A stretch of 64,000 bases of DNA from Candidatus Liptonbacteria bacterium (GTDB lineage Bacteria; Patescibacteriota; Minisyncoccia; UBA6257; 2-01-FULL-56-20): the NCBI GenBank assembly GCA_016194445.1, contig JACQBP010000035.1, positions 4,396 through 68,395 of the forward strand, written 5' to 3'. Shown piece after piece: positions 4,411 through 61,300 of the stretch (position 1 is the stretch's first letter; every line of letters starts with the position of its first letter). Under the pieces are notes generated by a model. It made no database searches. It was given only the letters and a program-made list of their open reading frames with translations, and was not told the DNA's origin. A program made the position numbers and the translations under genes.

Positions 4411-4457
4411 CGTTTTATTGATTGATAATATGTTAAAAATTGATTAGAGTAAAGACA

Positions 4458-7052
4458 ATGGCGAGGGTGATTTCTATTTGTAATCAAAAAGGCGGGGTGG
4501 GGAAATGTTTGGCGCCAGGGACGCCGGTGCTTCTTTCGTCTGGAGAACTGGTGCCTATCGACAGGGTTTTTGAAAAGCACTGGGGAGATAATTTAGTGAA
4601 GAGGCTTGATAGCGACGGCGGAGTTTTTATTAAACCGAAACATGAGATCGGGGTTTTTTCTTTAGATGACGAACTTAAGATCGTTGAGGGCAAGGTGGAG
4701 GCTTTATACCGAGGAAGAGCGGAAAAGCTTCTCGAGATTAGAAGTAGTAGAGGTAAAACAGTAAAGGTAACCCCCACACACCCTTTCTTGTCGTTCAGGA
4801 ATGGTAAGCCAGGGTGGGTGTGTGCCAATGACTTGGAGGAAGGTGATTTTATTGCGGTACCCCGACAGGTCGAAGTCAGAAGTCGGAATAGCGCCGTAGA
4901 TCTGATTCCGATGGTTCCAGATGAAATTTATCTTTGGGTTAAGGACAAAGACTTTGTGGATGTTCATTTGGCCGACATTCTTTCCCGATCGAGTTTGAAT
5001 CTTGAGGATAAAATATTGTTTCAGCTCTTACAACAAGAAGAGGTGTCCGCTTCCAAACTTTATGCCACAGGAGGCAAGCCAGCTGTTTTTAAGCATCTGC
5101 GGTCGCTTTTGGCCAAAAATGTTGTAAGCCGAAGGAGGAGAGGGGAATATGTTTACTCACTCATTCGGGAAGGGGCCGTTGATTATATGTATCGGAGAGG
5201 TTTTTCGGTTCGAGTTTTTAAGGAGTGTGGTTGGGATAAAAATATGATTGCTAAGATGGGCTATCGCACTCGTTTTGGTTACACGTGTATTCCTATAAAC
5301 CCAATCTGGGAATTGGATAGAGATTTGGCGATTTTCCTCGCTATTATTTTAGCCGAAGGATATCTTGGGCCGTCGCGGATTGTGCTGTTTCATACCTCGC
5401 CTGAGATATTGGATTTTTTTAGCGCCTACTGTAGGAGGGTTGGGCTCCGATGCCAAAAAGAGTGGGTTGGTAATCAGTGGAAAGCGACGGTTAATCAAGC
5501 CGGAACCTTGATGAAGATTCTTCACGAGGTAGGGGAGGTGCCAATACGAGGCAATCGGAAATCATTTAAGGTTAAGGTTCCGGGGGTGGTGCTACGGGCA
5601 CCCAGAGAAATCTTAGCCGCTTATCTTGGCGCCTACATCGGCTGCGAGGGGTATATTGCAAAGGACAGGTCTACGGTTGAAGTGACCAGCGCTAGTTTTG
5701 AGAATATTATTGGGCTACAATATGCTTTTTTGAGATTTGGAATTAACAGTACTTTGAGGAGTGGATGGAAGTGGGCTACTAATTCTCCTGCGCCAAAGAA
5801 AAGGATGTATCACTTTCTTACCATTACCGGCTCTCATGATCTGCGGATTATTTTGGAAGGTTTGCCGATTTTGATTGAGGAAAAAGTCGAGAAACTCAAG
5901 AGGGTCTGTGAACTGAAACCAAACACTAATGTTGACGTAGTGCCAGGGGTAGGGTATTTGATAAAGTCGGTTCGGCAAAGCTTGGGGTTGCGGCAAAGAG
6001 ATGTCGGCATCCAAGGAACAATTACTGATTATGAAGATGGCAGTAATAATCCGTCAAGAACGGCGATCCAGGGAATGGTGGCCACTCTTTCGAGGAGCCC
6101 TTTGTTTTCTTATCAGGATCTCGAGGTAGAACTTTTGGATCGACTGGGATTCTCGGATGTGTTTTGGGAGCGGGTAACTTCTAAAACTTCTAGCGATTAC
6201 GATGGCTACGTTTATGATTTAACTGTTGGTAAATTCCATAATTTCATAGCTGGACAGGGTGGGTTGGTGGTGCACAATACGACGACGGCCGTTAATTTGG
6301 GGAGCTATTTGGCGGCGCTCGGTCGGCGGGTGTTACTCGTGGATTTTGACCCGCAGGCGAACGCGAGTTCGGCTTTGGGTTATGATCCTTTGCGGACGGA
6401 GCTTAGCGTTTATCACGGCATTATTAACGCCGCGCCGCACGAACACGTGATCCGGCCAACCGCCCTATTTAACTTTCATTTAGTGCCGGCGGCGCCGCAT
6501 TTGGCCGGAGCTTTAGTTGAGTTTGTGAATTTGCCGGAGCGGGAATATTTCCTTCGAAAGTTTATTAATCGCGTCAGACATAGCTACGATTATGTTTTAG
6601 TGGACTTGCCGCCGTCCTTGAGTCTGCTCACCGTGAACGGTTTGGTGGCATCGGATGAAGTTTTGGTGCCGGTGCAGGCGGAGTATTATAGCTTAGAAGG
6701 ATTGGGTCAGCTTTTGCAGACGATTGATTTGATTCGAAATAATTTGGGACACAACATTAAGGTTAGCGGCGCGGTGCTTACCATGTACAATAAGGGCGAA
6801 CGGTTGAGTCGGGAAGTGGCGACGAATTTAAGGAAAAATTTTCCGTACACTGTTTTCAACACTGAAATCCCCAGAAGTGTGGCGCTCGCGGAGGCGCCCA
6901 GTTTTTCGAAGCCGGTGATGCTTTACCGGCCGGATTCGATCGGGGCTTTAGCATATCGGAATTTGGCGGCGGAGGTTATGGCTCAAGAGAAGGAATTGAT
7001 TGCGGGGGCGATGGTAGCGAGTCAAGATTTTGGAAATTTTAATGTTATTTAG
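4458..7052 (+). CDS. soj: chromosome-partitioning ATPase ParA/Soj interrupted by an intein (possible alternative start at 4440)
   Basis: MARVISICNQKGGVGK then C...; after residues VVHN the extein resumes TTTAVNLGSYLAALGRRVLLVDFDPQANASS, a typical ParA. The Walker A motif KGGVGK|T is split by the insertion. Confidence 0.85.
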   Translation: MARVISICNQKGGVGKCLAPGTPVLLSSGELVPIDRVFEKHWGDNLVKRLDSDGGVFIKPKHEIGVFSLDDELKIVEGKVEALYRGRAEKLLEIRSSRGKTVKVTPTHPFLSFRNGKPGWVCANDLEEGDFIAVPRQVEVRSRNSAVDLIPMVPDEIYLWVKDKDFVDVHLADILSRSSLNLEDKILFQLLQQEEVSASKLYATGGKPAVFKHLRSLLAKNVVSRRRRGEYVYSLIREGAVDYMYRRGFSVRVFKECGWDKNMIAKMGYRTRFGYTCIPINPIWELDRDLAIFLAIILAEGYLGPSRIVLFHTSPEILDFFSAYCRRVGLRCQKEWVGNQWKATVNQAGTLMKILHEVGEVPIRGNRKSFKVKVPGVVLRAPREILAAYLGAYIGCEGYIAKDRSTVEVTSASFENIIGLQYAFLRFGINSTLRSGWKWATNSPAPKKRMYHFLTITGSHDLRIILEGLPILIEEKVEKLKRVCELKPNTNVDVVPGVGYLIKSVRQSLGLRQRDVGIQGTITDYEDGSNNPSRTAIQGMVATLSRSPLFSYQDLEVELLDRLGFSDVFWERVTSKTSSDYDGYVYDLTVGKFHNFIAGQGGLVVHNTTTAVNLGSYLAALGRRVLLVDFDPQANASSALGYDPLRTELSVYHGIINAAPHEHVIRPTALFNFHLVPAAPHLAGALVEFVNLPEREYFLRKFINRVRHSYDYVLVDLPPSLSLLTVNGLVASDEVLVPVQAEYYSLEGLGQLLQTIDLIRNNLGHNIKVSGAVLTMYNKGERLSREVATNLRKNFPYTVFNTEIPRSVALAEAPSFSKPVMLYRPDSIGALAYRNLAAEVMAQEKELIAGAMVASQDFGNFNVI
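4506..6278 (+). mobile_element. large intein (591 aa) with a LAGLIDADG homing-endonuclease domain inserted in the parA P-loop
   Basis: Starts with Cys (CLAPGTPVLL). Block B is VTPTHPF. LAGLIDADG-like blocks are LAIFLAIILAEGYL and LGAYIGCEGYI. Block F/G is VYDLTVGKFHNFIAG...VVHN, followed by the +1 Thr. Confidence 0.8.
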
Positions 7053-13520: not shown

Positions 13521-13724
13521 ATGAAAAATTTTTTTAGAAATCAATATGATAAGATATTAGTTTTGATGGCGGTGGTTTTTTTGGTGGGTTTGACGATTTT
13601 TTACGTGTGGGGCGCGCGGTTTCTAGTGGTTGGTTTTAATAGGACAACCGAGATTAAGGGTGGACCAGAGGATTTAGTGCATTTTGATGTAGGTGGGGCG
13701 GCTAAGTTAAACTTAGTTCACTAA
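13521..13724 (+). CDS. small hypothetical membrane protein
   Basis: 67 aa with a single TM helix. Confidence 0.3.
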   Translation: MKNFFRNQYDKILVLMAVVFLVGLTIFYVWGARFLVVGFNRTTEIKGGPEDLVHFDVGGAAKLNLVH

Positions 13725-13956
13725 AGTAACTGTGCCATCAGTGCTCCCGTAGAACGTTTTCTACGGGCTTGACTTGGGCTTGGGTTGACGCTCGTGGAGT
13801 TTTGGTTTTTAATGTTAGTGGATTGAGCTTAACAAAGAACGGGCGGATGATTTATTAGGGAATCTCATTAATTGAGATTATGGGGCAATGGTCCGTTTTT
13901 CTATTTTTAACAACGTTGGTTAGAGTGGTACTCTGGTGTTAAATTTCCAAGTTAAT

Positions 13957-14028
13957 GCGCACATAGTTCAGTGGTAGAACGCGTTCCTGATAAGAACGAG
14001 GTCCTTGGTTCGATTCCAAGTGTGCGCA
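13957..14028 (+). tRNA. tRNA-Ile(GAT)
   Basis: GCGCACATAGTTCAGTGGTAGAACG..CTGATAA..GGTTCGATTCC..TGTGCGCA; anticodon GAT. Confidence 0.85.
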
Positions 14029-14106
14029 CCGGAAGCTGAAAGGTAGCCCCGCTGTGAGAGGGACAAAAGAATTTGTGAAGCTTAAGATTCGCTAACAAAT
14101 TCTAAC

Positions 14107-43817: not shown

Positions 43818-44783
43818 CTAGTGGGGTTTAGCCTTGATGTGATTTAAAATCTTTTCCACATTTTTGATGCTCTCGGGATCGTTCATCGAGATGGCGATCA
43901 CGTGAGGATCTATTTTTTTGAGCGCCGATAATTTTTGATTGAGTTCTTTGGGTGTGGCCAAGTCGCTTTTAGTCAGAAAAAGACGTTCGGGTTTTTTAAG
44001 GAGTGCCGAGTTCCACGCGCCGAGTTCCTGACGGATGGTTTGATAGTCTTTGGAAGGAGTGGGGGATTCCGATGAAATAAAGTGGAAAAGAAGATGCGTT
44101 CGCTCGATGTGGCGGAGGAACTTGATGCCTAAGCCCTTACCACTCGATGACCCTTCGATGAGTCCGGGAATATCCGCGAGGATAAGTTCGTAGTAGGCAC
44201 CGAGGTGGGGCTCAAGCGTGGTGAAGGGATAATTAGCCACTTTACTTCTTGCGCTCGTCAGTTTGTTCAACAAGCTTGATTTGCCGACATTTGGAAAGCC
44301 CACGAAGCCGATATCGGCAATGAACTTAAGCTCGAGCCGGAGGGCAAAATTATCTCCGGGTAGGCCCGGCTGCGCCTGTTTTGGGGTGGTGTTACGAGAA
44401 GAACGAAACTGGAAATTGCCTTTTCCACCGATGCCGCCTTTGGCGAGGAGGACCAGCTCGTCGATTTTTTCAAAGTTAATTTCTGCGCCGTTGGTAAGGT
44501 TGTGGGCGACAGTGCCAATCGGCAATTTCAAAATAAGGTCACGTCCATCTCGGCCGTCGAGAAACTGGCCGCGACCGTCCCGACCATCTTCAGCAAAAAA
44601 TTCTTTTTTAAAGCGGAATTGCCAGAGCGCGCCCAGATCGGAGACACCGAGGCCGTAGATGCTGCCGCCTTTGCCGCCCGATCCTCCGGTCGGTCCGAGA
44701 CTCTTCAAGTTCTTATTAAAAGCCACGGCGCCTTTTCCGCCGTGGCCGGCGCTGATTTTTATTTTGACATCATCGATGAGCAT
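43818..44783 (-). CDS. obg: GTPase Obg (lacks the C-terminal extension)
   Basis: Obg-fold Gly-rich N-domain; G1 GFPNVGKSS; DIPG; NKSD. Confidence 0.88.
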   Translation of the reverse strand: MLIDDVKIKISAGHGGKGAVAFNKNLKSLGPTGGSGGKGGSIYGLGVSDLGALWQFRFKKEFFAEDGRDGRGQFLDGRDGRDLILKLPIGTVAHNLTNGAEINFEKIDELVLLAKGGIGGKGNFQFRSSRNTTPKQAQPGLPGDNFALRLELKFIADIGFVGFPNVGKSSLLNKLTSARSKVANYPFTTLEPHLGAYYELILADIPGLIEGSSSGKGLGIKFLRHIERTHLLFHFISSESPTPSKDYQTIRQELGAWNSALLKKPERLFLTKSDLATPKELNQKLSALKKIDPHVIAISMNDPESIKNVEKILNHIKAKPH

Positions 44784-44813
44784 ATAAAGGAGAATCTAAA
44801 TAAATTCGGGATT

Positions 44814-45407
44814 TTAGAGGGTATTGGTTTGTTCCCGGCCGGTTGAAGTTCGATACACCCTACACGCTGCCCAAAGACCAAGTCCGTTTCCGCGAGCTTC
44901 AGTTTCGGCTTCGTTAAAATCTTTAACCCGAGAAGTATCCGGTTCGTAGGGGTAGCTAAAGGCCAATCCCTGTTTGACTAGCGCCAAATTCACAAAAGTG
45001 CCGTCGCTAAGATACACAAAGCCTAGCCAGCGGCCGTACTTATCTCGATCCGATACATCTTTGTAAAAAATAATCGACTGGCCTTCGACTAGAGCTTGAT
45101 TGGCGGCGGCCGCTTCTTTGGCAAAACATTGAACTGGCTTTCTCGGATCGACTTCCTCGGGCGTATCGATGCCGATGTAGCGCAACCGATCGCCATTCAC
45201 CAGTTCAACCGTGTCGCCATCGATCACTCTTACCACTTTAATCGCGTGGCCAGCTTCCGTTTTGAAGGAAGCGTCATAGAGCGTCGCGGTATTTTTACCT
45301 AACCCGCCGATCAGAGCCGGAGACGCGTAGTGATAAAACAAAAAAGCCGCAATCAATGCGCCAGCCAGAAAATAAAATTTCTTCAATGTCATCGGCCTAA
45401 TATTCAA
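44814..45407 (-). CDS. secreted thermonuclease (SNase-like)
   Basis: Signal peptide; VIDGDTVEL ... RYIGIDTPE ... GRWLG catalytic pattern. Confidence 0.75.
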   Translation of the reverse strand: MNIRPMTLKKFYFLAGALIAAFLFYHYASPALIGGLGKNTATLYDASFKTEAGHAIKVVRVIDGDTVELVNGDRLRYIGIDTPEEVDPRKPVQCFAKEAAAANQALVEGQSIIFYKDVSDRDKYGRWLGFVYLSDGTFVNLALVKQGLAFSYPYEPDTSRVKDFNEAETEARGNGLGLWAACRVYRTSTGREQTNTL

Positions 45408-45496
45408 AAATACAGTTTTTACTTCCTTTATTAGATGCGTTCAGAACTTTGATTGGAGGAAAGATAGGGTGAGAAGTGGAAGAACTGCGGTTAGAG

Positions 45497-45715
45497 TTAA
45501 GATTTGCCGTTTAGATACTTACTTGCAACACTTAACGCAAATGAAGGCAGTATAATAAAGACCGCCGTAAATAGAAGTTTCATTAATAATATATGTAGAC
45601 TCGAGCTATTGGCATCCCCTCCATCCGGCAATGTCAAAACTACTAATATTCCAATAATTCCAAAAGCAATGGATGAGTAAACAAATATTCGTGTCACTAT
45701 TTTTTGTTTCGACAT
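45497..45715 (-). CDS. small hypothetical membrane protein
   Basis: Two TM helices. Confidence 0.3.
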   Translation of the reverse strand: MSKQKIVTRIFVYSSIAFGIIGILVVLTLPDGGDANSSSLHILLMKLLFTAVFIILPSFALSVASKYLNGKS

Positions 45716-46155
45716 GGTCGGGGATCCTCGATAAATTCAAATCTTTAAATTTATCGGGACATAGTTTTAGTATATCTGTGTATTTTAATCATCAAAGGTC
45801 GAATCAAAAATTCAAAATTTTAACGCCGCCGATTCTATCTAACTTATCCACAACTACTGTCTTGACGAGTGGGACCACTTAAGGAGCTATTAGAGATACC
45901 GAGCTTTTTGGGGAGTACAATTGGCCTTTCAGGGTCAATTAAGGCAACTAATCAGGGTCAATATACGGCATAGAAAGTATTCAAGCCTTGTCTAGTCAAA
46001 CTGATATATCAACAGCCGAACGAGCACTCTTTTCAATCGGCGCACCAATAATTACTACTTTAGGAGCTATAGGCACGGCATATTTCGGTTCCGCTATTGG
46101 TCTAAAAATTAAGAAGGTGCTTGAATCTAAAAAAGCTCGATAATGACAACTAAAA

Positions 46156-50159: not shown

Positions 50160-50429
50160 TCCCCGGTAGCTCAGTGGTAGAGCGGATCCCTGTCGGATAG
50201 GCAGCCTACAAGAGTAATCTTGTTTGAAAATTTCGGGATAACGGTGAACCCTTCGATACGCTTTGGCATATAAAGGTAACACCGTGGGAACCTCGCAATT
50301 TGCGGGGGCACCGTAGAGACTAGATACCGAAACATCCCAGTTGGGATGATGATATAGTCCGCGCCCTTTGGAAACTTTGGGATAAGTGTAAGGATAAGGT
50401 CGTAGGTTCGAATCCTACCCGGGGAGCCA
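50160..50429 (+). tRNA. tRNA gene interrupted by a group I intron; most likely tRNA-Asn(GUU)
   Basis: 5' exon (50160..50193) is TCCCCGGTAGCTCAGTGGTAGAGCGGATCCCTGT. 3' exon (50389..50426, plus CCA) is TAAGGATAAGGTCGTAGGTTCGAATCCTACCCGGGGAG+CCA. Joining them gives the anticodon loop CUGUUAA. U1:A72 and G73 match bacterial tRNA-Asn. Confidence 0.75.
50194..50388 (+). ncRNA. group I self-splicing intron (about 195 nt, small IC3-like) in the tRNA anticodon loop
   Basis: Conserved core elements are present: P-like AATTTGCGGG, R-like GTAGAGACTAGA and S-like GATATAGTCC. The 5' exon ends in U and the intron ends in G. A possible P1 pairs exon CUGU with intron GCAG. Confidence 0.7.
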
Positions 50430-52016
50430 GATGGGATGAGTGTCGCGAAAAGCGGCACTTTTCTCTTTATTGGTGGGCTTTTTCGCAGGTTCGAAAGTGC
50501 TTTTTTCGGTGTTTTTCTCGGAAAGCTCTTGTTGAACTCGATCATGTATGAGTTTAAAGGCTTTTTGGTAAGAAACCTCGACATTCTTGCCGTTTATCTT
50601 GGGGTTCGAAAATAGAAATGACAGCAGGGTTCGTTTTTGCTCAACCGTTCGCCGGGGTTTTAGATAAGTGTCGCGGGCCTCTTTTGCTATTTGAAGCACG
50701 GCCACACCCATCTCAAAATATTTGAGATTCGCGTTGCGATGGCGGTTTAAGCTGTCCAGCGTTTCTTCTTGCTCTTTTTTGTATTGCTGGAGTTTTTTGT
50801 CATAAAAATCGTGGCTGATTCGGCCGTCGATTTTATCGTCATAAAGTTTATCTATTCTCTGGGTGGCCGTCTGATATCTTCGTTCAAGTTCGGCCGATGA
50901 TTTTTCACGGAAGGCGATCTCGCCGGCATGGCTTTCTTTGAGTGCCTCTTGGACCCACGAGAGCATCCGTTCAATGCGTTTATCTTCGTGGCTTACTTCA
51001 ACCACCGATTTGGCCACTTGAGTATTGATATCTTCTTGCTTTACCCAATCATAATTCGGGCAGTTTTTGTAATGATTGCAGTGGCCGTACCAATGGCCTT
51101 TTTGTATTTCCCAAGTAATCGTTCCTCCGCATTCACTGCATCGGAATACGCTTTTAAACAGCGAATTGTGCTTTCGCATCCTCGGAGCTCCGTAACTGTG
51201 CAATCTATCCTGCACTTTTTGAAAAAGTTCTTTACTGATAAGCGGTTCGTGGTGACCCGGGGTGATCTGATTTTTCCATCGGTTCATGCCGTAGTAGAAC
51301 GGATCACCGAGAAGCTGATGGATTCGGGCATGGCTTACTTTGTGACTGGTACGCGAGCGCAGGCCTTTTTCATACATCGCATTGCAGAGTGTCTTGGTTG
51401 AGTATTGGCCGGATGCATATAATTCAAACATCTTTTTAATGAGTGGTGATTTTTCCTCGTCAATCACATGAACTTTATGTCCCTTCTCGCCGTCGGTTTT
51501 ATATCCGAGCGGAGGCTTTGTCGGCAACCATCCCTGCGCCAGTTTTTCTTTTTGCCCCTTTTTTACATTTTCAGAGAGCAGTCGGATATAGTATTCGGCT
51601 GTTGCCACTTTTACTCGCCACATAAACCACTCGTGCGATTTTGATTCTTTGTGCAGGGTGCATCCTTCTTTGACCAGATGAATTTTATGATTATCATCGG
51701 CCAGTATCCAATTATCAATAACCGGTACATCGGCGAAGTTTCTGGTGAGCCGGTCGGTGGTCTCTACGATGATGGTGTTGATTTTGTTTTTTACCACATG
51801 CGCCATCATCTCGCCGAAGATTTTTCGCTGGATTTTGCCGGCGGCCGACTCTTGGATGGCAAAAACTTTCGTGAGCTCGAAGTTATTGCGTTCGGCATAG
51901 TCGCGAAGGAATTTTTCTTGGGCCGGTAGTGAATAGCCGGTATCCTCTTGATCTTTTGAGGACACGCGGGCGTATCCCACGGTCTTTGGCATTTCGTTAT
52001 TGTTTATCATTGTCAT
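50415..52016 (-). CDS. large serine recombinase (integrase)
   Basis: N-terminal resolvase catalytic domain with VGYARVSSKDQ; recombinase domain; zinc ribbon CSECGG...HCNHY. The 3' end overlaps the tRNA 3' end by 15 nt. Confidence 0.85.
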   Translation of the reverse strand: MTMINNNEMPKTVGYARVSSKDQEDTGYSLPAQEKFLRDYAERNNFELTKVFAIQESAAGKIQRKIFGEMMAHVVKNKINTIIVETTDRLTRNFADVPVIDNWILADDNHKIHLVKEGCTLHKESKSHEWFMWRVKVATAEYYIRLLSENVKKGQKEKLAQGWLPTKPPLGYKTDGEKGHKVHVIDEEKSPLIKKMFELYASGQYSTKTLCNAMYEKGLRSRTSHKVSHARIHQLLGDPFYYGMNRWKNQITPGHHEPLISKELFQKVQDRLHSYGAPRMRKHNSLFKSVFRCSECGGTITWEIQKGHWYGHCNHYKNCPNYDWVKQEDINTQVAKSVVEVSHEDKRIERMLSWVQEALKESHAGEIAFREKSSAELERRYQTATQRIDKLYDDKIDGRISHDFYDKKLQQYKKEQEETLDSLNRHRNANLKYFEMGVAVLQIAKEARDTYLKPRRTVEQKRTLLSFLFSNPKINGKNVEVSYQKAFKLIHDRVQQELSEKNTEKSTFEPAKKPTNKEKSAAFRDTHPIWLPG

Positions 52017-52109
52017 TTTTGGTTAATTTTTTGGTTCGAAATCGACCTTTGGTCTCAAGACAACCCCTATGCCAATTCTCGATATCCATCAAGCTGATTT
52101 GCCCACAGC

Positions 52110-52646
52110 TCAAACACCGGTGTCTATCCAGTCAAAAAGTCGGTTTTCCGCATCTTCTGGATATTCTTTTCGAGCCAGCTTGAGCCGTACTTCGTAAGGG
52201 ACGAGATACCACCTTTCCATTGATGTCATTTTTGAGAGCGCTTCTTTGCTTAAATTCATTTCTTCTTTGGGCCTGCCTTCGACGCGATCCAGAAGCTCTT
52301 TTATGGCGCCGAGCTTCACATTGTCTTGCTGGCTTCCCATTAAAGCTACGAGCATTTCGTTGGCAAGCCGGAAGTTCTTCTCGCGAATTTGAACGCCGGC
52401 CTTGAGAAGCATCTGCATCGTTTCCCCGTGGATTGTATCCATTTCTTTCTCGTAAAGCTTGTATGTCTCGCAGAGCGTTCCCGTGTCTTTAAACCAATCT
52501 TTTGCTGTTTGCTCGGAAAACTTGCCTTTTCTACTTTTTTCAAACTGGGAATTCAAAGTTTCGGCAATGTCTTGGTAGGAATTGCCTTTATATTTCAGCT
52601 CTAACGCTTTCTTGTGGTATTCGGCTAAATGTTTGAGTTTCGGCAT
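52110..52646 (-). CDS. hypothetical HTH protein (element-encoded)
   Basis: GNSYQDIAETLN helix-turn-helix-like segment. Confidence 0.35.
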   Translation of the reverse strand: MPKLKHLAEYHKKALELKYKGNSYQDIAETLNSQFEKSRKGKFSEQTAKDWFKDTGTLCETYKLYEKEMDTIHGETMQMLLKAGVQIREKNFRLANEMLVALMGSQQDNVKLGAIKELLDRVEGRPKEEMNLSKEALSKMTSMERWYLVPYEVRLKLARKEYPEDAENRLFDWIDTGV

Positions 52647-52657
52647 GAAAAGTTGTG

Positions 52658-52855
52658 TTAAGTAGAGTGTTTGGCTGATTCATGGCGAATAGGTTGGACC
52701 GGCTTCCCCAGCACATACTCAATAATAATTATTGCCGCTTGAAGCCGTATTGATTCGTCTTTGCTTTCCAAAAGCGAAACCAGCACTTTTGTCGCTTTCA
52801 CTACATTTTTTCGTAGTATTTCTATCGCGATTTCTTCTGGCTTTTTATTTTTCAT
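52658..52855 (-). CDS. small hypothetical protein
   Basis: 65 aa, overlaps the next gene by 4 nt. Confidence 0.25.
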   Translation of the reverse strand: MKNKKPEEIAIEILRKNVVKATKVLVSLLESKDESIRLQAAIIIIEYVLGKPVQPIRHESAKHST

Positions 52856-53346
52856 GGTTTTGGCGTCATTGATTTTATTAATGTCTCGCGACCTCTTGCG
52901 AGCGCATCCAATGATTCCTGGTCTTTTTCTTGGGCGTATTGACGGCGGTATTTTAGATCATCGAGCGCGCGTTTCTTTTGGCAAAATTCTTCGTATGCCT
53001 TAAGGCCTGGGCCTACCGCCCAGCTCCAGCCCGGGTGTTCTGGCTTAACCCAGCGACGAGATATCGCTTTATTTCGAAGCAGATATTGGACGATACCGGC
53101 ATCGGTTAGGCCGGTAACATCGTTGCGAACTCGACGCGTGTCTTGGCTTTCGGGGAATTCTCGCTTGCCGATCTTAAAGGCGTTTATAACCGGCACCGTC
53201 TCTCCGTAGAAGCTCATTGGTCTTTCCAGCGGTTCTTTTTTCAGTTGCTCAAGCTCGGCCTCAAATTCTCGAATAGCTTTTCGATCTTCTTCGATATCCA
53301 AGTCGTACCCGACTTTTATTGGTTTTTGTTCTTCATTTAATTTCAT
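52852..53346 (-). CDS. hypothetical protein
   Basis: Charged helical protein; no recognisable motif. Confidence 0.35.
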   Translation of the reverse strand: MKLNEEQKPIKVGYDLDIEEDRKAIREFEAELEQLKKEPLERPMSFYGETVPVINAFKIGKREFPESQDTRRVRNDVTGLTDAGIVQYLLRNKAISRRWVKPEHPGWSWAVGPGLKAYEEFCQKKRALDDLKYRRQYAQEKDQESLDALARGRETLIKSMTPKP

Positions 53347-53349
53347 GGC

Positions 53350-54117
53350 TTAGACAATAAATTTAAGAAGTGTCTCAAGGCTATATTTCTTGAGCCATCC
53401 TTCTTTGACCGCTTCTTGCATCCGCTTATAGCCTTGCTTCAACCGCTCGTCCTCAAACGGCATAAGGTTTTTAGCGGCTCGCAGATTTCTTCGGATAAAA
53501 GTTTCCCATTGCCTTTTAGTGGTGAAATCAGGCTCCTCGGTATCCGCCCAAATTCCGATAATCTGAATATGGCGTTGCGGACTTTGATTGCACCACTCAA
53601 CGAATTCTTTTAAATCCATAGGCATATCCGCATTCACCGAAGGTGTTGCAATATCTTCTTTATTAATTTTCTTTATTGATTCTTCTTTGTTGCCATCCAT
53701 TGGCTTTTCTAAAATCACCGGATGACTTTTCATAACGCACCCAGTGCCTTTTCTATGAGAAAAATCATCTGGTGACTTTTCTTTTTTGGCATAGTATTTG
53801 GCGTTCAGTTGCCATAAATCGACGATCTTGTACTCAATGGTCGGCTTAGTTTTGCCGGCAACGCCGACTTTTTCTATCCAACCTCTTTGCACTAAAGTTT
53901 TCTGATACTTTCTGACGGTACCCGGAGCGATATCGAGTTTCTTTGCGATATTAATCGGCGACTCCCAGCAGGTGCCGGTCTCGCCGGCAACGCGCTTCAT
54001 GTAAAGATAAATTGCCTGCTCGTAGACGGTTGAATGGTTCACGATATAGTTCGGAATGATCGTGAAATATTTGCGGTCACCGCTTTTATCTATGATTTTG
54101 AAGGGATCACTTTTCAT
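53350..54117 (-). CDS. winged-helix DNA-binding protein (replication or regulatory function, element-encoded)
   Basis: wHTH-like segment PGTVRKYQKTLVQRGWIEK. Confidence 0.35.
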   Translation of the reverse strand: MKSDPFKIIDKSGDRKYFTIIPNYIVNHSTVYEQAIYLYMKRVAGETGTCWESPINIAKKLDIAPGTVRKYQKTLVQRGWIEKVGVAGKTKPTIEYKIVDLWQLNAKYYAKKEKSPDDFSHRKGTGCVMKSHPVILEKPMDGNKEESIKKINKEDIATPSVNADMPMDLKEFVEWCNQSPQRHIQIIGIWADTEEPDFTTKRQWETFIRRNLRAAKNLMPFEDERLKQGYKRMQEAVKEGWLKKYSLETLLKFIV

Positions 54118-54288
54118 GGCTTTGTTGTTCGGCGATTAAATCCTCGCAGTAGCACTGCATCAGCGTGTCGTAAAAGCCCACGAGACAAAATGCGATGTCG
54201 TGCAAATCCTGATCATTGACCTCTTCGCCAAAATCTTCTTTGAGAATGACGCGGAGCTTCTCCAGCGTTTCTGGTTTTAAGTTCACGG

Positions 54289-54549
54289 CTATTCGTGGGC
54301 ATAAATCCTGACTTTGGCGAGTTTAAGCTGGTTGAAAAATGCTTGCGGCTCGACCTTGAGTTCGCGCTTCCAATACTTGGCGACAAGCTCATCCAGCTCG
54401 TCGCTTTTCTTGAACGCGAATAGGACTTTATGCGGGTTTGTCCGATCGCAGACCTCGAGCGAATCGGGAATAAATAATAAAAGCACCGCCACCAACGCTA
54501 AATCGGCGGATTTATAAACTTCGGTTTGTTCAGTTGTTTTCATCGTCAT
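54289..54549 (-). CDS. small hypothetical protein
   Basis: 86-aa ORF. Confidence 0.3.
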   Translation of the reverse strand: MTMKTTEQTEVYKSADLALVAVLLLFIPDSLEVCDRTNPHKVLFAFKKSDELDELVAKYWKRELKVEPQAFFNQLKLAKVRIYAHE

Positions 54550-54651
54550 TATTCGCTAAACCGATGTTCCGTTTCGGGGCCTCACCCAAAACAAAACACA
54601 CTCCCATGTTAAGGGAGTGCATTCATTCAATTTTCAGTTATGAATTGATTT

Positions 54652-55353
54652 TTAGGGCTTAAAATACCATCCTTCCTGCTTTTGATTGAAAATTACATCT
54701 TTTTTGAAATGAAGTTTTAATAGGTTGTGGAGCTCGCTTACATACTTTGCGATTGTAATTCTGGGCGTGGATTTTCTTCTGTCCGCATTGATAATCGCGT
54801 CTTGTATGTCATCTCTTGTGAGCATCCGATTCGGGTGATCCATAAAAAGTCGGCATAAATCTTTTATCTGACTTCGCATTTCAATCATTTCGCCTTGATA
54901 TCGGATCGTTCCATCGGAATAGCCGGCAAGGCCTTTTATTTCAATCTCTGGCTTCAAATCTTGAACATACAGCAAGTCCTTTTTGTGCCGGCGCGTAGGA
55001 GCTGTACTGAAGATTTCCTCATCAGATTTCTTGGGTGGCGCAACCAGATCCATCAATTTTTGCCGTTCCTTATACAAAAGCATCTTTATCGGTCTAATCA
55101 AATAAAAACAATCTTGATCCTCTTCAAAATTGCCAATAATTTTCTTCTTTTTGAGGTCTTTAAGCCACCGTCTCTGTTCGTCCCAAGAGTGGAGCGGAAA
55201 AGGGTTGAGCCAGACCTTTTTTCGTTTAGAGTAAAATTCGGGATCATCCTCGCCGGCCACTTCAACTCTTTTGATAACCTCGTTGATAAAATCAATTTTT
55301 CTTTGGGCCTCCCGCCTGATTTTTACTACATCATCATTAATAGTCATTGTCAT
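54652..55353 (-). CDS. hypothetical protein
   Basis: 233 aa; the C-terminal part may be winged-helix-like. Confidence 0.35.
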   Translation of the reverse strand: MTMTINDDVVKIRREAQRKIDFINEVIKRVEVAGEDDPEFYSKRKKVWLNPFPLHSWDEQRRWLKDLKKKKIIGNFEEDQDCFYLIRPIKMLLYKERQKLMDLVAPPKKSDEEIFSTAPTRRHKKDLLYVQDLKPEIEIKGLAGYSDGTIRYQGEMIEMRSQIKDLCRLFMDHPNRMLTRDDIQDAIINADRRKSTPRITIAKYVSELHNLLKLHFKKDVIFNQKQEGWYFKP

Positions 55354-55440
55354 AGTGTTAAATCCATTGTGTCAGATTTTGCCACTTTTGAAAATAAATA
55401 CGAGCGGACGGTAACAGTTTCAATGAGCTAAAGCGACGGA

Positions 55441-56070
55441 TTGTCGGAAAAAGAAATAAGTGATATGGTAAAAAATATTTCCATAGCTTCTATGCCCAAA
55501 CCACAACTTACCTACAATCCCAATTATTATGACGGAACAAACCTCATGCAGCTGAGACCGCGCGAGGTTGCTTTCAAAACATATAAAATGCGCGACGGTA
55601 CTCTGATAGGCTTATTTCAGGGAAGTCGTGGAGTGCGACCAGACATTGATTTCGTTATAAAAATTCTTATTCCCGGATCCGATAAAAAATTAAGACCACC
55701 AACTCACACCTTTTGGGTTGTGGATCTATTACTTAAAATCCCGCAATACAAGAACGAGGTGAAAGAAATTGTGCAATATTATATAGATTATTACGAACGG
55801 ACGGTTCCTTTTGCTTCTGTTCAGGAAAGAAATAATTACCAGCTTGAAACCGTTGAGGAAATTACAACTCGTTATGCGCAACTGGAGCAACCATATACAC
55901 TTTCACTCGATTATGTCGCGACGGTCATTGAACTTTTTTGTAAGAACGAGAAAATCAACCCCGGCGCATATATGTTCCGAAATCTCTTGCTCGTGTTGAG
56001 AGATTATATTGACGGCAATAAGCACTATACAGAAGTGCTTCAGGCCGCAATGCCTGGCTACAGAAATTAG
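55441..56070 (+). CDS. hypothetical protein
   Basis: 209 aa; no recognisable motif. Confidence 0.35.
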   Translation: MSEKEISDMVKNISIASMPKPQLTYNPNYYDGTNLMQLRPREVAFKTYKMRDGTLIGLFQGSRGVRPDIDFVIKILIPGSDKKLRPPTHTFWVVDLLLKIPQYKNEVKEIVQYYIDYYERTVPFASVQERNNYQLETVEEITTRYAQLEQPYTLSLDYVATVIELFCKNEKINPGAYMFRNLLLVLRDYIDGNKHYTEVLQAAMPGYRN

Positions 56071-56711
56071 CTTGCTGTCTCAAAAATCTTTTTTACTAGC
56101 CCTGTGCGAGCATAGAATGCCCGAGTAATAGGGCGACGCTTTCCAGTTCGCGGATTAATACCACCAATGCCTTTTGTGCGAGCCTGTATCCACTTGCCGT
56201 CTTTCCCGGTTAAGGCATCAAAACCCTTCTTAATCAGTTTGTCGCGGATAAAATCGTAGTCGGCCTTGATTTCTTTTATCAATTCACCGTCCTCGGCGAA
56301 ATCCAAGCTTGCCACGCTCAGCAACTCCGCTTTCTTGGAATTCATGCCATTCCATTTTACGGCACAAAAAATAATAGTTTTAAATTTTGCCCAAACATGA
56401 CTTTCAAAAAACGAATGATCCTTTAATTCTTCGGGGTGGACCATTGTTATCGCCATCGTTTCTTTTGGTACGAGTTTATTGTTCACATAATGAAAGGCGA
56501 CGGATTTGAGTTCGTAAGTAAGCCCATTCGGTGCTTTTGAGACATTTGTTTGTAGCCCCGCCAACCGTTCTAAGACAAGACCCTTCCAGCCTTTATTTTG
56601 CTTTCCATTCTTAAACGAATTGATACCGAATTGCAAAGCAAGATCGGCAAGGTCTCTACCAATATATTTCTTCAGATTTTTTATCGCAGTTGCCCGAGTT
56701 ACAATTTTCAT
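56067..56711 (-). CDS. MutH/Sau3AI-family GATC endonuclease (restriction subunit)
   Basis: Similar to MutH. NKGWKGLVLERLAG aligns with MutH DKGWIGVLLEIWLG, TYELKSVAF with GVELKTIPV, and the C-terminal ITRAFYARTGLVKKIF with RGFYLKKNF. Translationally coupled (ATGA) to the upstream methyltransferase. Confidence 0.75.
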   Translation of the reverse strand: MKIVTRATAIKNLKKYIGRDLADLALQFGINSFKNGKQNKGWKGLVLERLAGLQTNVSKAPNGLTYELKSVAFHYVNNKLVPKETMAITMVHPEELKDHSFFESHVWAKFKTIIFCAVKWNGMNSKKAELLSVASLDFAEDGELIKEIKADYDFIRDKLIKKGFDALTGKDGKWIQARTKGIGGINPRTGKRRPITRAFYARTGLVKKIFETAS

Positions 56712-58177
56712 GCCTCTTTGATAAGTTTATTGTTTAAATTGCGATCCAATTCCTCGAATCGTTTAATAGATAGCTCTAAAAATTTTGATTCGGTATCAAT
56801 ACCTATAAATTTTCTTCCATGAAGATAGGCCGCAATGCCGGTAGTGGAACTTCCTGTAAATGGGTCAATGACCAGATCACCTTTATTCGTGCTTGCGAGT
56901 ACTATTCTTTTTAACAAATCTTCTGGTTTTTGTGTAGGGTGTTTTCCAAACTTTTTTTCTATCGGCTTGGGAGTGCCCATTGACCAAACCGAGCGCATTT
57001 GGAGCCCTGGCTTTTTTAAATTATCCTCCGTCCAATGGCCGTTTTTCATCAGATCATAATTGAATGTGTGTTTCGCCTTTCTTTCTTTTCTTGCCCAAAT
57101 TAAAGTTTCGTGACTTGCGGTAAAGTATCGGCAACTAAGATTCGGTGACGCGTTTGGTTTAAACCATGCGATGTCGTTTAAGATATGATATCCGAGTGCC
57201 TGTAGAGCATGGCCGCACTGGTAAATTGAGTGATAGGTACCGCTAACCCAGAGAGTACCGTGCGGCTTCAAAACTCTTCGACACGCCTCCATCCATTTGT
57301 AATGAAAATCATAGTCATCTTTAAACCCCTTACTCTTGTCCCAATCTCCCTTATTCACGCTAACCATTCGTCCGGCGTGAACCGTAAAGCCGCCGTTGGA
57401 AAGGTTGTAGGGTGGATCGGCAAAAATCATATCCACAGAATTTTCTGGAAGTCGTGCTATCACATCTAAGCAATTTGCTTGAAAGAGTTTGAATTTTGGT
57501 TTTTCGTAATAGGGCTTTAGTGCTACTGTACCTTGGTCTGTTTTTTCGATAACAATTTCGGGGATATTTACACTTGCTTCTTGAATCACATCCAGCACTA
57601 TCCCTTGGATCGAGACATCTCGTCCGTTTCTAAATATAAGCGGCTCCATGCTTTTGTTTGCTGGTTGTAAGCGAATATGTCCGCGTTCTCTATAAAATTT
57701 CTTTAGCGTTGCTTCGTGGTTATCGATGAGGGCGACTACCTTTTGTCCGTTATCGGCAACAGCTTGTTGCTTTACCAATACAACATCGCCATTATTGATT
57801 CCTTCATCGATCATACTATCGCCGAGCACGCGCAGGGCATAGAATTCACCGCTTCGTGGTAGCTTGTTTTGAGGGATCGCAATAGTTTCCTTTTCTTGTA
57901 TTGCCTCTATCGGCTGGCCCGCGGCTATGGTGCCCAAAAGAGGAATTTTTACCAGTTTAGCGGTTTTTTCTATTAAACTAATGCCACGCGCTGAATTATC
58001 GTTTTTTGCAACGAATCCTTTATCTGCCAAAACTCCGATATGCTGGTGGATCGTTGAAAGAGAGGAGAGTCGGAAGTGTTTTTTGATTTCTTCCAAAGTC
58101 GGTGAAAAGCCCTTCTTGTTGATATAAGACTCGGTGTAGTCGTAGATTTGTTTTTGTCGCTTGGTTAGTGTGGCCAT
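56708..58177 (-). CDS. LexA-like repressor (wHTH plus S24 peptidase) fused to a DpnA-like GATC N6-adenine DNA methyltransferase
   Basis: The N-terminal 200 aa align with E. coli LexA, including the AAG cleavage site and GDSM/K catalytic residues (LTKRQKQIYDY, GTIAAGQP, LRVLGDSMIDEGINNGDVVLV, TLKKF). The C-terminal 285 aa align with M.DpnIIB/DpnA: DMIFADPPYNLSNGG, VSVNKGDWDK, NLSCRYFTASHETLIWARK, GKHPTQKPEDLLKRIVLAST and VIDPFTGSSTTG. Confidence 0.8.
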   Translation of the reverse strand: MATLTKRQKQIYDYTESYINKKGFSPTLEEIKKHFRLSSLSTIHQHIGVLADKGFVAKNDNSARGISLIEKTAKLVKIPLLGTIAAGQPIEAIQEKETIAIPQNKLPRSGEFYALRVLGDSMIDEGINNGDVVLVKQQAVADNGQKVVALIDNHEATLKKFYRERGHIRLQPANKSMEPLIFRNGRDVSIQGIVLDVIQEASVNIPEIVIEKTDQGTVALKPYYEKPKFKLFQANCLDVIARLPENSVDMIFADPPYNLSNGGFTVHAGRMVSVNKGDWDKSKGFKDDYDFHYKWMEACRRVLKPHGTLWVSGTYHSIYQCGHALQALGYHILNDIAWFKPNASPNLSCRYFTASHETLIWARKERKAKHTFNYDLMKNGHWTEDNLKKPGLQMRSVWSMGTPKPIEKKFGKHPTQKPEDLLKRIVLASTNKGDLVIDPFTGSSTTGIAAYLHGRKFIGIDTESKFLELSIKRFEELDRNLNNKLIKEA

Positions 58178-58276
58178 AAACGATTGACTCGGTGTATTTA
58201 TTTTCTTACACTATCAGTATACCGAAGATTTGCCGAAGATGTAATAGCCCACTTATCCACATGCAGAGAAATAGCA

Positions 58277-58294
58277 AACAAGTCGACAAACTTG
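58277..58294. promoter_or_regulatory. ACAAGT-N6-ACTTGT palindrome (with central GTCGAC) in the divergent promoter region; candidate operator
   Basis: Only strong palindrome in the 170-bp region between the LexA-methyltransferase start and the 1205-aa gene start. Confidence 0.35.
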
Positions 58295-58347
58295 TCTATA
58301 AACTCTACGGCCTCACTTCGGAGGAGTTAAGATTGTAGAACAAAACC

Positions 58348-61300
58348 ATGCCGGAAAACGATAAAGAAATACCAGTTCCATATGAGAAGCCACTAATTTT
58401 AAGCGAGAAGCAAAAATGGCTTTGCTCACATTTGGATGCACTCAACGGCATTGAAAATTTTTGTCCAAACGCAATCCCATCCGATCTTTTTGTAGGCGCA
58501 CTGTCTTTGGTTAAATCAAAAAACAGAAAGACAAACCCTGATTGGATGGCACAGGCAGCTCATTCTTTGCGAGAAATATTATATGGAGTGGGGCAGGTCA
58601 GACGACCCAAAAATAAACTTATCCTGGCTTGGCAAGTTTTCTTGGGAAAAGGTGAAAATTCTCTGACTCGAAGAGCGAGGATTGAAAATTTATTGAAAGT
58701 ATACCAAGAGGAACAGCGGGCTTCAGAATTAGCTCATGTTTTAAATGATTTACATTTTATATTTACCAATATCGCTCATCATTTGCAGGATAGTCAAAAA
58801 CATAAGTATGTAAAAAAGAAACTAATAAAAATAGGGATTTCAAATCCAGAACCTTCCTTGATAGTAACTGAAGCTGTATTTGAACAATTGATGGATACTC
58901 TGGAAAATGCTTGGGCACAATCTATTCCTCGACAACTTACCATTCATGAACAAATCGATTCTCTGTTAAGCCGCGATCCAAAATTAGTCAGCAAAGGAGT
59001 TTTGAATGTTCTTTTATCTTTTAACCCCGACGCGCGGTACTACTTTTATACCAAAGCCGATGAGCGTTGGCTTGGTTGGCTTTGGGGAAATGGTTTTCTG
59101 GATGTTATCAAACAAAAAGCAGAAGATCCTACGCGCTATGGCTATAGAACACCAGAAGTTAATTACCTCGTAAAAGTTTCTGAAAAAGAGCCGGCAAAGG
59201 TGGTTGATATTATGCTGGCCGTACCGATTTCTACGGAGAACTTTAATCCAGAAGTGGTGGACAGGTTCTTACGCATTTGTAGTGGCTTGCCAGCACCAGA
59301 ACTCAAACGGATGGTAAAGAAAATTCGTGATGATGGATTGGTGCGACTTATGGGTGCATTCAACGATTGGGGTTTTGAGTATGAAAAAATGCTTAAAACT
59401 TTAACTGATGTCAATGACTTTGATAGCGTTCTTGTTCTTGCAGAGGCAGTACTTTCCATTCGTACAAAAAAAGAAGCCGAACAAACTTCGCGCGGCTTTT
59501 TGTCCGACAATCCTTTCTACTTCAAAGAACTAAGCTATACAAAAGTATTCGAATACTTACTCAAGGTGGATGAGAAAAACATTGAAAATGCACTCACCTT
59601 GGTAACCAGCACGATGAAAGAGGTTGTACTCTTTGGAGAAAAAGAAGGCAAGGATGAAGTGTTTAAGGTTTATGATAGCTACTTTTTATTAGATGTAGAT
59701 TTTTTTGAGCTTGAACTTACCGAAAAAGACAGGCTTTCGCACAGAGACGATGTTAAAAATCTCGCAGCTGTTATTAAGCATTATGCAGAGCAAACCATCG
59801 GGAAGAAATGTGACGATGTCGAATCGGCAGTTAAGCTGTATAACCAGTATTTTAATCATCTCCCGGATAGCCGCTCTATGTGGCGTCTCCGATTATTTGT
59901 ATTGAGTTTGTGCCCCGGCGCATTTAAAGAAGAGCTTAAAAAGGCATTCTTCCGATTGTTTGAGATTGAGCGTTACTATAACGAGATTATTTCTGGCACA
60001 GAATATTTGAAGGCGCTCCGTATTGGATTTCCTGTTTTATCTGATGATGATAAGCGTAAATATGTAAAACAGGTTATAGATTACTTTGTAAAAAAAGACC
60101 AAGAAAAAGAGAACGAAAAAGAAAATTGGCATATAGGGTATGGCTCGAGAATTATTTCAGTAATAGCCGATCAGCTTACTGAAGAAGAAAAACAAACAGC
60201 CAAAGACGCTGGATTTACGCTCGATCCTAACTATAAGCCAGAGCCATCCATAAAGATGGGTGGTTTTGCTGGTAGCATAAGACCAAGGGGACCGATAATC
60301 CAAGAAGAATTTGGAAATCTCTCGATAACTGATATTGCAGGGAAATTAAGAGTTGAATGGACGCCAGAAGAGTTGAGAAAAGAAAATACAAACGAGGATT
60401 TTCATAATCCCTTAAATGCAGAGGGTGTCGGCGAAATGTTGCGAATTGATATAACTAAGCGTCTACAAGATTATATAAATAACGCAAACATCTTTTTTGA
60501 ACGAGATAAATTAGACCAGCACTATACTTATTCTTTTCTGCGAGGCATACAAGAGGTTCTTCGAGGCAATAAAACCGAGGTCAGTGGTATAAATTGGGAT
60601 AATTTGATAGCTCTTTGCGTCACGATAAAGAAATCTGGCGAGACAAAACCCTTCGATAGCGGAAATCGCGAGCGCGATACTTTTGATGCGTGGCTTTCTG
60701 GCTGGACAGGCGTTCATTCTGCTATGACAGATGTTGTCCAAGAACTACTGACCGAAGAAAGGGGTGCTAAAATCGACTTTCCTAAATATCGCGATGACCT
60801 GTTTGGGGTCATAGGATATCTCCTTTCTTATCCCGATCCAGTTCCCGCCGACGAAGAGCCGAAAACAGCAAAAATGACTACAACGCCTCCTGGCGCAAAA
60901 GAACAAATGGTAAGCGATCCTTATTCGATGGCAATCAACACGGTACGGGGTAGAGCATTTCAAGCTTTTGCGTTGTTTATGTATCAAGACGGGAAGAAGT
61001 TCTCTAAAAACGAAAAAATAAAGATTTCCCTCGATGTTAAGGGACTGTACGAGGCTGTTCTCAAAAAAGAAAATACCCGGGCCCTTATGTTTATGTTCGG
61101 GCATTATCTGCCGTCGTTCTACTTTCGAGATAAAGAGTGGATGCAGAGCCTTTTCTCGCAGATTTTTTCTGCAGAGCCAACAAAGAAAAATCTCTATACG
61201 GCCGCATGGGAGGGCTATGTTTCAGCAAATCTTTATGATGAGATATTCTTCAACCCAGATACTCAGAAGTTATACGAACGGGGTCTTGCTCTGACAGATT

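Follow-up and report, generated by a model that had tools for sequence, protein, structure and literature searches.

The 64,000-nt stretch of DNA analysed here (the window) carries on its forward strand, at positions 50160-50429, a tRNA-Asn(GUU) gene split by a 195-nt intron, as read directly from the sequence. That this is a genuine intron-split tRNA-Asn is confirmed, far beyond chance. Sequence comparison further indicates, with a probability that we put at about 0.93, that the gene is chromosomal and that its intron is a self-splicing group I intron inserted between U35 and U36, belonging to the lineage common at this site in Patescibacteria. The original prediction had proposed that a minimal group I intron, about 195 nt long, splits a tRNA-Asn(GUU) at 50160-50429. 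Its coordinates and size proved exact, both in the sequence and in the output of ARAGORN with introns allowed, and structure, covariation, family model and published work agree with its interpretation. The gene is laid out as follows.

50160-50193, forward strand: exon 1 of tRNA-Asn, tRNA positions 1-35, starting UCCCCGG and ending GGAUCCCUGU, with C32-U33-G34-U35 as its last nucleotides
50194-50388, forward strand: group I intron, 195 nt, between anticodon positions 35 and 36 (Rfam, model R1 described below, covariation)
50389-50429, forward strand: exon 2 of tRNA-Asn, UAAGGAUAAGGUCGUAGGUUCGAAUCCUACCCGGGGAGCCA, tRNA positions 36-76, with G73 and an encoded CCA
50438-50470, forward strand: terminator-like hairpin and T-run, just downstream of tRNA-Asn

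When introns were allowed, ARAGORN returned 50160-50429 as a split tRNA with a 195-nt intron. Joining the exons at 35/36 gave a 75-nt tRNA that was called as tRNA-Asn(gtt), with the U1:A72 pair and G73 that had been predicted for a canonical tRNA. A sigma-70 promoter scan upstream of the gene found none. In scans of the whole 64-kb window, neither default ARAGORN nor Rfam at its gathering threshold produced a match at the tRNA-Asn locus. Default tools thus miss the gene and its intron, and intron-aware ARAGORN mislabels the gene as tRNA-Thr, which is a caveat for annotation: a genome with this gene would seem to have no tRNA-Asn and would be scored as less complete. The same caveat for annotation and completeness in the presence of intron-split tRNAs has been made in published work.

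Two other candidates in the window were rejected. A 'tRNA-SeC' called by ARAGORN at 13677-14030 consists of a ghost exon attached to a normal tRNA-Ile, and the motif GATATAGTC at 13384, considered as a sign of a split tRNA, lies within coding sequence and has no partner motif.

Homologues, structure and proposed splicing of the intron

In a lenient scan of 401 nt, a search that the original prediction had suggested, the Rfam model Intron_gpI (RF00028) matched the intron at 34.9 bits (E 2e-7), below the gathering cut-off of 50 bits. The alignment was good through P3, P4, P6, P7, P8 and the J8/7 segment. Intron_gpI is insensitive for bacterial tRNA introns, and Williams used 18-20 bits together with a dedicated model (10.1101/2020.01.27.920355).

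Homologues were collected by scanning one genome per species with the pattern CTGT…GTAGAGACTAGA…GATATAGTCC. At least 120 loci matched, nearly all of them in Patescibacteria MAGs. Where the junction was resolved, the same intron lineage was found at 35/36 of at least 37 tRNA-Asn, at least 39 tRNA-Asp and at least 24 tRNA-Tyr genes. The 37 homologous Asn introns among the matches listed span 184-229 nt, and six of them fall below 195 nt. The size of the window intron had been predicted to lie close to the smallest known. This does not hold, as the family goes down to 184 nt and a 196-nt Asp intron self-splices (PMC13011429). ARAGORN also called 'tRNA-His' genes with introns of 167-168 nt at two loci (L062 and L101); these were mis-parsed Asn-type genes and not exceptionally small introns.

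The closest relative among the matches listed is a locus in a Parcubacteria MAG (L056), 89% identical over tRNA and intron, with flanks unrelated to those in the window. A ribonucleotide reductase gene in the window has 68% DNA identity to one in a Paceibacteria MAG. Judged by such relatives, and not by markers within the window, the host probably belongs to the phylum Patescibacteria and is of Parcubacteria/Paceibacteria type.

Leaving the window out, we built a covariance model (R1) from the 37 homologous introns found in other genomes. It gave a single match in the 64-kb window, at 50188-50394, with a score of 183.1 bits and a rough E of 7e-51, and the match was full-length (model positions 1-213 of 213). 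The 37 homologues and the window copy were aligned, giving 38 Asn introns, and a hand-drawn secondary structure was assessed on the alignment. In this structure 89.3% of cells are paired, a share that falls to 35-45% if the partners are shifted by 1-3 columns; both sides change in 28 of the 52 base pairs, and the covariation score was reached by none of 500 shuffles. These data establish the secondary structure and covariation of the intron and its membership of the family. P1, P2, P3, P4, P5, P6 and P8 were already present in the unconstrained minimum-energy fold. The elements are listed below.

50190-50204, forward strand: P1, CUGUC 50190-50194 with GGCAG 50200-50204, L1 GGAUA (minimum-energy fold, covariation)
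50208-50223, forward strand: P2 hairpin, 6 bp, with a GUAA tetraloop (L2, 50214-50217) (fold, covariation)
50231-50236, forward strand: P3 5′ strand, UUUCGG, pairing with 50327-50332
50241-50285, forward strand: P4-P5 domain (Rfam alignment, fold, covariation)
50241-50246 with 50280-50285, forward strand: P4, ACGGUG with CACCGU (Rfam alignment, fold, covariation)
50250-50253 with 50273-50276, forward strand: P5, CCUU with AAGG, and a short P5a hairpin at 50256-50271
50286-50312, forward strand: P6, GG 50286-50287 with CC 50311-50312, and P6a hairpin at 50291-50307 (Rfam alignment, fold, covariation)
50313-50322, forward strand: J6/7 and P7 5′ strand, GUA G A GACUA (aligned by Rfam to the AGACUA consensus)
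50327-50332, forward strand: P3 3′ strand, CCGAAA, forming the core pseudoknot with P7
50333-50348, forward strand: P8, a minimal hairpin, CAUCCC-AGUU-GGGAUG (fold, covariation)
50349-50360, forward strand: J8/7 (AUGAUA) and P7 3′ strand (UAGUCC) (Rfam alignment, covariation)
50361-50388, forward strand: P9.0, P9 and terminal G (covariation)
50361·50387 and 50362-50386, forward strand: P9.0, a G·U and a C-G pair
50364-50381, forward strand: P9, CCC-UUU-G[GAAA]C-UUU-GGG (pairs covary; L9 GAAA loop conserved)

A U50193·G50201 wobble in P1 marks the 5′ splice site, and the inner pair of P1 covaries among the 38 aligned Asn introns (CG in 15, GC in 12, AU in 8). In the same alignment all six P2 pairs show changes on both sides, P3 is 100% paired with compensatory changes in four of its six pairs, P4 is likewise 100% paired with an AU/UA swap in 11 of the 38 introns, and five pairs of P8 covary. 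The second P9.0 pair is CG in 34 sequences, UA in three, which are compensatory changes, and UG in one. The 3′ exon offers essentially no P10 pairing, which counts against the preferred reading of the locus. The intron contains no homing endonuclease ORF and has no space for one.

The original prediction had located R, S and P core elements. The R-like element, GUAGAGACUAGA at 50313-50324, and the S-like element, GAUGAUAUAGUCC at 50348-50360, are both present, and were aligned by Rfam to J6/7-P7 and J8/7-P7 of Intron_gpI respectively. The P element had been assigned to the wrong stretch: the 'AAUUGCGGG-like' sequence at about 50297-50308 forms the loop of the P6a hairpin together with its 3′ strand, and P4 is formed by 50241-50246 and 50280-50285. 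P7 has the pairs G50316-C50360 and G50318-C50359 with a bulged A50317 between them, followed by ACUA/UAGU; the second of these pairs, beside the bulge, is a candidate for the guanosine-binding pair. The last base of the intron, G50388, is the terminal G (omega-G). The search pattern fixed P7, J6/7 and J8/7, so that their invariance in the homologues is not independent evidence, and omega-G was a selection criterion, which makes its conservation partly a matter of construction.

The intron thus has the features by which group I introns are recognized, namely a P1 U·G wobble at the 5′ splice site, the core helices P3-P9 with the P3/P7 pseudoknot, and a P7 G-C pair by a bulged A together with a terminal G placed by P9.0. 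It also has two features of the Patescibacteria tRNA-Asn lineage, in that it interrupts a tRNA of Asn identity between U35 and U36 and gives a full-length match to the model of the other members.

L2 is a GNRA tetraloop in nearly every member of the family, and it covaries with P8. Of 25 sequences with a GAAA loop, 19 have a P8 5′ strand that begins with CCUA, the 5′ half of the 11-nt GAAA-receptor motif, and most of these 19 end in a UAUGG-like sequence. A GUAA loop goes together with a plain CCC:GGG P8 helix in all five sequences that have it, including the window copy. These pairings agree with the established preferences of tetraloops for their receptors, and the CCC:GGG stretch of P8 is the likely docking site for the L2 GUAA loop. 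In the family alignment a tetraloop and its receptor can be seen to change in step, a clean example from nature.

We propose the following pathway, which is ordinary group I chemistry, for the window RNA. The group I core of the precursor would consist of P1-P2, the domains P4-P6 and P3-P8 (the latter with the P3/P7 pseudoknot) and P9.0/P9, with the L2 GUAA loop predicted to dock on the CCC:GGG of P8 and the L9 GAAA loop on P5. A free guanosine, bound at the putative P7 site (G50318-C50359, beside A50317), would attack the bond after U50193, which would be presented to it as the U·G wobble with G50201 in P1. G50388, positioned by P9.0, would then occupy the guanosine site, and the freed 3′-OH of U35 would attack the bond after G50388 and join U35 to U36. 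Ligation would create the GUU anticodon in a 75-nt tRNA with its encoded CCA. Splicing of the window RNA, the tertiary contacts and the guanosine site are inferred; the proposed catalysis has support from two other introns at 35/36 that have been reported to splice in vitro.

The recombinase gene beside the tRNA

The tRNA gene is adjoined by a gene on the opposite strand.

50415-52016, reverse strand: large serine recombinase (integrase), 533 aa, convergent with the tRNA (Pfam Resolvase and Recombinase; PHROG 95 integrase, E 1e-78)

The recombinase gene overlaps the last 15 nt of tRNA-Asn, and its five final codons (W L P G stop) are read from the strand complementary to the tRNA 3′ end. The tRNA-Asn 3′ end reads …CCCGGGGAGCCA, and the adjoining sequence beyond it is GATGGGATG. 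Homologous recombinases, 35-43% identical, lie directly 3′ of an intron-bearing tRNA-Asn in three other genomes among the matches listed (L135, L132 and L051). Further downstream in the window are genes for a replication-initiator-like protein, a LexA-methylase fusion with a MutH-like nuclease, and a 1205-aa protein without a family match, and a primase-helicase gene lies just past the window. The genes downstream of the tRNA look like those of a mobile element.

The intron-split tRNA had been placed directly at an integrase attachment region. An integrase gene does abut the tRNA, but the att site, repeat and empty site that would belong to such a region were not found. No second copy of the tRNA 3′ end, as a sign of attL and attR, was present in the 64-kb window with up to three mismatches. 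A repeat search around the tRNA locus returned only short, chance-like matches, and neither an empty site nor an excised form was found. A contig from an independent assembly is identical to the window from 50400 to 59613 and stops exactly 30 nt before the CCA end. The assembler that produced it perhaps used k=31; if so, a stop at 30 nt is what would result from an assembly-graph branch directly behind the tRNA. DNA runs of the community from which the window comes are SRR12113409 and SRR12113410. Taken together, the adjoining integrase gene, its homologues in the other genomes, the downstream genes and the contig stop make the tRNA 3′ end a plausible attachment site. It is possible, though we hold it only tentatively, that what is new about the locus lies beside the intron, in a mobile element that, once integrated, has the last five codons of its integrase supplied by the tRNA 3′ end.

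Alternative readings of the locus

The junction of the split tRNA is ambiguous by two nucleotides, with GU after the 5′ junction and UG before the 3′ junction. The original prediction made no mention of this ambiguity. Both placements obey the rule of a U before the intron and a G at its end; one gives tRNA-Asn(GUU) with the intron at 35/36, and the other gives tRNA-Thr(UGU) with the intron at 33/34, exon 1 ending at U50191 and the intron at G50386. ARAGORN itself calls the gene as Thr(tgt), i(33,195), and the 33/34 ligation product also folds as a tRNA. We nevertheless give the Thr assignment almost no credence. At the site that it requires, U50191 forms a Watson-Crick pair with A50203 (U-A in 37 of the 38 aligned Asn introns), whereas the U·G wobble is formed by U50193 with G50201 and is conserved in 37 of 38. 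Nor is the acceptor of the Thr type: the window gene has U1:A72 and G73, as do all 37 homologous tRNA-Asn genes among the matches listed, whereas G1:C72 and U73 occur throughout the 23 intron-less tRNA-Thr(UGU) genes listed from that set of loci. Exactly this miscall has been described, and position 35/36 confirmed by sequencing of spliced products (Nakagawa et al., PMC13011429). The U·G wobble in P1, together with the tRNA identity elements, therefore indicates that the gene is tRNA-Asn(GUU), and establishes the exon/intron boundaries between U35 and U36.

Two further readings accept the Asn assignment and concern the state and the origin of the gene. The intron could be a decayed relic unable to splice, and the locus a tRNA pseudogene, as might be suspected from the sub-threshold Rfam score, from three consecutive U·U mismatches in P9 of the window copy, and from a minimal P8 that lacks the 11-nt receptor of most relatives. 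We regard this as very improbable. All core helices are intact, and the match to the family model, at 183 bits, is full-length; U·U occurs at the first of the P9 mismatch positions (50367:50378) in 20 of the 38 aligned Asn introns; and the closest relative among the matches listed, L056, keeps the same features as the window intron at 89% identity. The minimal P8 is matched by a GUAA loop in L2, as in all five GUAA members, which resembles co-adaptation, and because L2 and P8 change together the short P8 appears to be an adapted variant and not a product of decay. In the literature, moreover, intron-bearing tRNA copies are usually the only gene for their anticodon. A somewhat less remote but still unlikely reading is that the split tRNA is part of a mobile element or prophage, having arrived with the neighbouring ribonucleotide reductase and the serine integrase, and does not belong to the host chromosome. 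Phage contigs often have tRNA genes with small group I introns, ribonucleotide reductases are frequent in phages, the sign of the GC skew flips upstream of the tRNA, near 45 kb, and a Logan contig starts at 45853. Against this, Asn accounts for none of the 19 intron-split tRNAs in a viral scan, the same Asn intron is present in at least 37 Patescibacteria genomes, mostly with no integrase nearby, and housekeeping genes lie upstream in the window. The integrase gene points toward the tRNA, which is the orientation to be expected with the tRNA 3′ end on the chromosomal side of the junction, and the break in the second assembly fits a divergence that starts after the tRNA. A chromosomal tRNA-Asn with an intact group I intron thus remains the preferred reading.

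Comparison with known introns

The cyanobacterial and plastid tRNA-Leu(UAA) intron is also a self-splicing group I intron in the anticodon loop of a bacterial tRNA, with a long history of vertical inheritance. It belongs to subgroup IC3 and differs in its site (34/35), in being longer (about 250 nt in Nostoc) and in its core sequences, and because the core sequences differ it is missed by the motif pair. The tRNA-Ile(CAU) intron of Azoarcus sp. BH72, of subgroup IC3, is, like the window intron, a compact, ORF-less intron of the anticodon loop with GNRA loops on P2 and P9, but it lies at 36/37 instead of 35/36, in a different host tRNA. The Azoarcus intron is about 205 nt long, and carries a GUAGAGACUAGA-type J6/7-P7 element, as does the window intron.

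The tRNA-Asn 35/36 group I intron of Patescibacteria is already known, and the window copy belongs, as an ordinary member, to a published family. Nakagawa et al. (mSystems 2026, PMC13011429; preprint 2025) described group I introns at 35/36 of tRNA-Asn(GUU) in Patescibacteria, which standard tools miss or which ARAGORN calls as Thr(UGU) 33/34. They demonstrated self-splicing in vitro, with sequenced junctions, for one tRNA-Asn and one tRNA-Asp intron at 35/36. In their survey, bacterial tRNA group I introns ranged from 184 to 894 nt, endonuclease genes were missing from most tRNA introns, subgroup IA took in 25 of the 28 introns at 35/36, and no tRNA intron of Patescibacteria was placed in IC. 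In Williams (bioRxiv 2020, 10.1101/2020.01.27.920355) the class already appears as 'Asn.4Ug', with a remark that it is confused with Thr. As the same tRNA, position and phylum are covered by Nakagawa et al. and Williams, the finding is not new. The window copy has in common with the published Asn introns (PMC13011429) the tRNA, the U35/U36 site, the ARAGORN miscall and the lack of a homing endonuclease, and, judged by its nearest relatives, probably the phylum. It carries little weight as a discovery, and adds to the family one more compact ribozyme (about 195 nt) whose P8 is minimal.

The window intron was also compared with individual introns of published sequence. The self-splicing tRNA-Asp(GUC) 35/36 intron of GCA_001029755.1 (196 nt) is nearly equal in size to the 195-nt window intron and has the same layout, sharing with it P1 CUGUC/GGCAG, a P2 with GUAA, GUAGAGACUA and GAUAGUCC, and a P9 with GAAA; its host tRNA is Asp, its identity at aligned positions is 67%, and it departs from the window copy in the P4-P6 sequences. 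The Asn intron of GCA_016700035.1 (234 nt), which was spliced in vitro, is 70% identical to the window intron over aligned positions. It belongs to a different sub-lineage, with a AAUUGCGGG-type P4 and extra helices, and its P4-P6 region is visibly unlike that of the window copy. That the two introns spliced in vitro are only 67-70% identical to the window copy counts against the preferred reading. The Asn intron of the Paceibacteria assembly GCA_030583765.1 (205 nt; Table S3) is 73% identical over aligned positions and shares the core motifs. Compared with it, the window intron is 10 nt shorter, has a minimal P8 and an L2 GUAA loop instead of GAAA and the 11-nt receptor, and has three U·U mismatches in P9, but shows nothing different in kind.

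Gene content and edge of the putative mobile element

Identity between the window and L164, a contig of the separate sequencing run SRR12113409, extends over positions 50400-59613. The end of that contig falls exactly 30 nt short of the CCA end of tRNA-Asn (window 50400-50429), as though the assembly graph had forked directly after the tRNA. A break at this position would fit a mixed population of cells, some with the putative mobile element and some without it. The following genes lie within the putative element.

56067-56711, minus strand: MutH-like nuclease gene
56708-58177, minus strand: LexA-S24-methyltransferase ORF, 489 aa
58348-61965, plus strand: ORF of 1205 aa

Three domains are fused in the single 489-aa ORF: LexA DNA-binding, S24 self-cleaving peptidase and N6/N4 DNA methyltransferase. 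This ORF overlaps the MutH-like nuclease gene by 4 nt (whole pair, 56067-58177). The two genes look like a restriction-modification pair in which an SOS-type repressor module has been placed on the methylase. Searches of Pfam and PHROG returned nothing matching the 1205-aa ORF. The next gene after it, just beyond the window end, encodes a primase-helicase of 707 aa with AEP-TOTE, DEAD and Helicase_C domains (gene table of L163).

Base composition, a further interrupted gene and a false tRNA call in the window

From position 1 to approximately 44 kb the GC skew is strongly positive (0.1-0.3), whichever strand the genes use. It is negative at 46-50 kb and close to zero across the putative mobile element. 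The switch, at about 44000-46000, may mark either a terminus of replication or the edge of foreign DNA. A further interrupted gene lies near the start of the window.

4440-7052, plus strand: ParA/MinD-type ATPase gene with an intein that contains a LAGLIDADG endonuclease domain

This intein is the predicted second self-splicing element of the window, acting at the protein level. When introns were allowed, ARAGORN also reported a 'tRNA-SeC' with a 259-nt intron at 13677-14030; this call is false, and consists of a ghost 5′ exon joined to a normal tRNA-Ile(GAU) at 13957-14030.

Host tRNAs and structural variation of the intron lineage

Among the genome-scan matches listed (L043-L162), the intron lineage was found in tRNA-Asn at 37 loci, and also at position 35/36 of tRNA-Asp(GUC) at 39 loci and of tRNA-Tyr(GUA) at 24 loci. 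The three hosts have C32-U33-G34-U35 in common, and this sequence pairs with the GCAG guide of the intron. A single guide therefore suits all tRNAs with GUN anticodons.

The first anticodon-stem pair of the window tRNA-Asn is mismatched, G27·A43 (positions 50186 and 50402). Since the same mismatch is present in several homologous tRNA-Asn genes of Patescibacteria, for example L056, L064 and L111, it seems to be a feature of the lineage rather than damage.

Split tRNAs were also observed on phage and viral contigs (L001, L012, L016, L017, L026, L027, L036 and L038; also L002-L004, L010 and L041). Some are Trp-like tRNAs, mostly with A1:U72 and G73, interrupted by group I introns of 178-206 nt; their apparent UCA anticodon would decode UGA. 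Further viral contigs carry tRNA-Leu(UAA) genes with introns of 193-196 nt. For some of these viral genes the junctions are provisional.

In an alignment of 38 tRNA-Asn introns including that of the window, the P2 tetraloop (L2) and the P8 helix vary in concert (window 50214-50217 and 50333-50348). GUAA in L2 is accompanied by a CCC:GGG P8 in all five cases, and GGAA by a short CGAGAACCG-type hairpin in four of five. Where L2 is GAAA, the 5′ strand of P8 begins with CCUA in 19 of 25 introns, a start typical of the 11-nt GAAA receptor.
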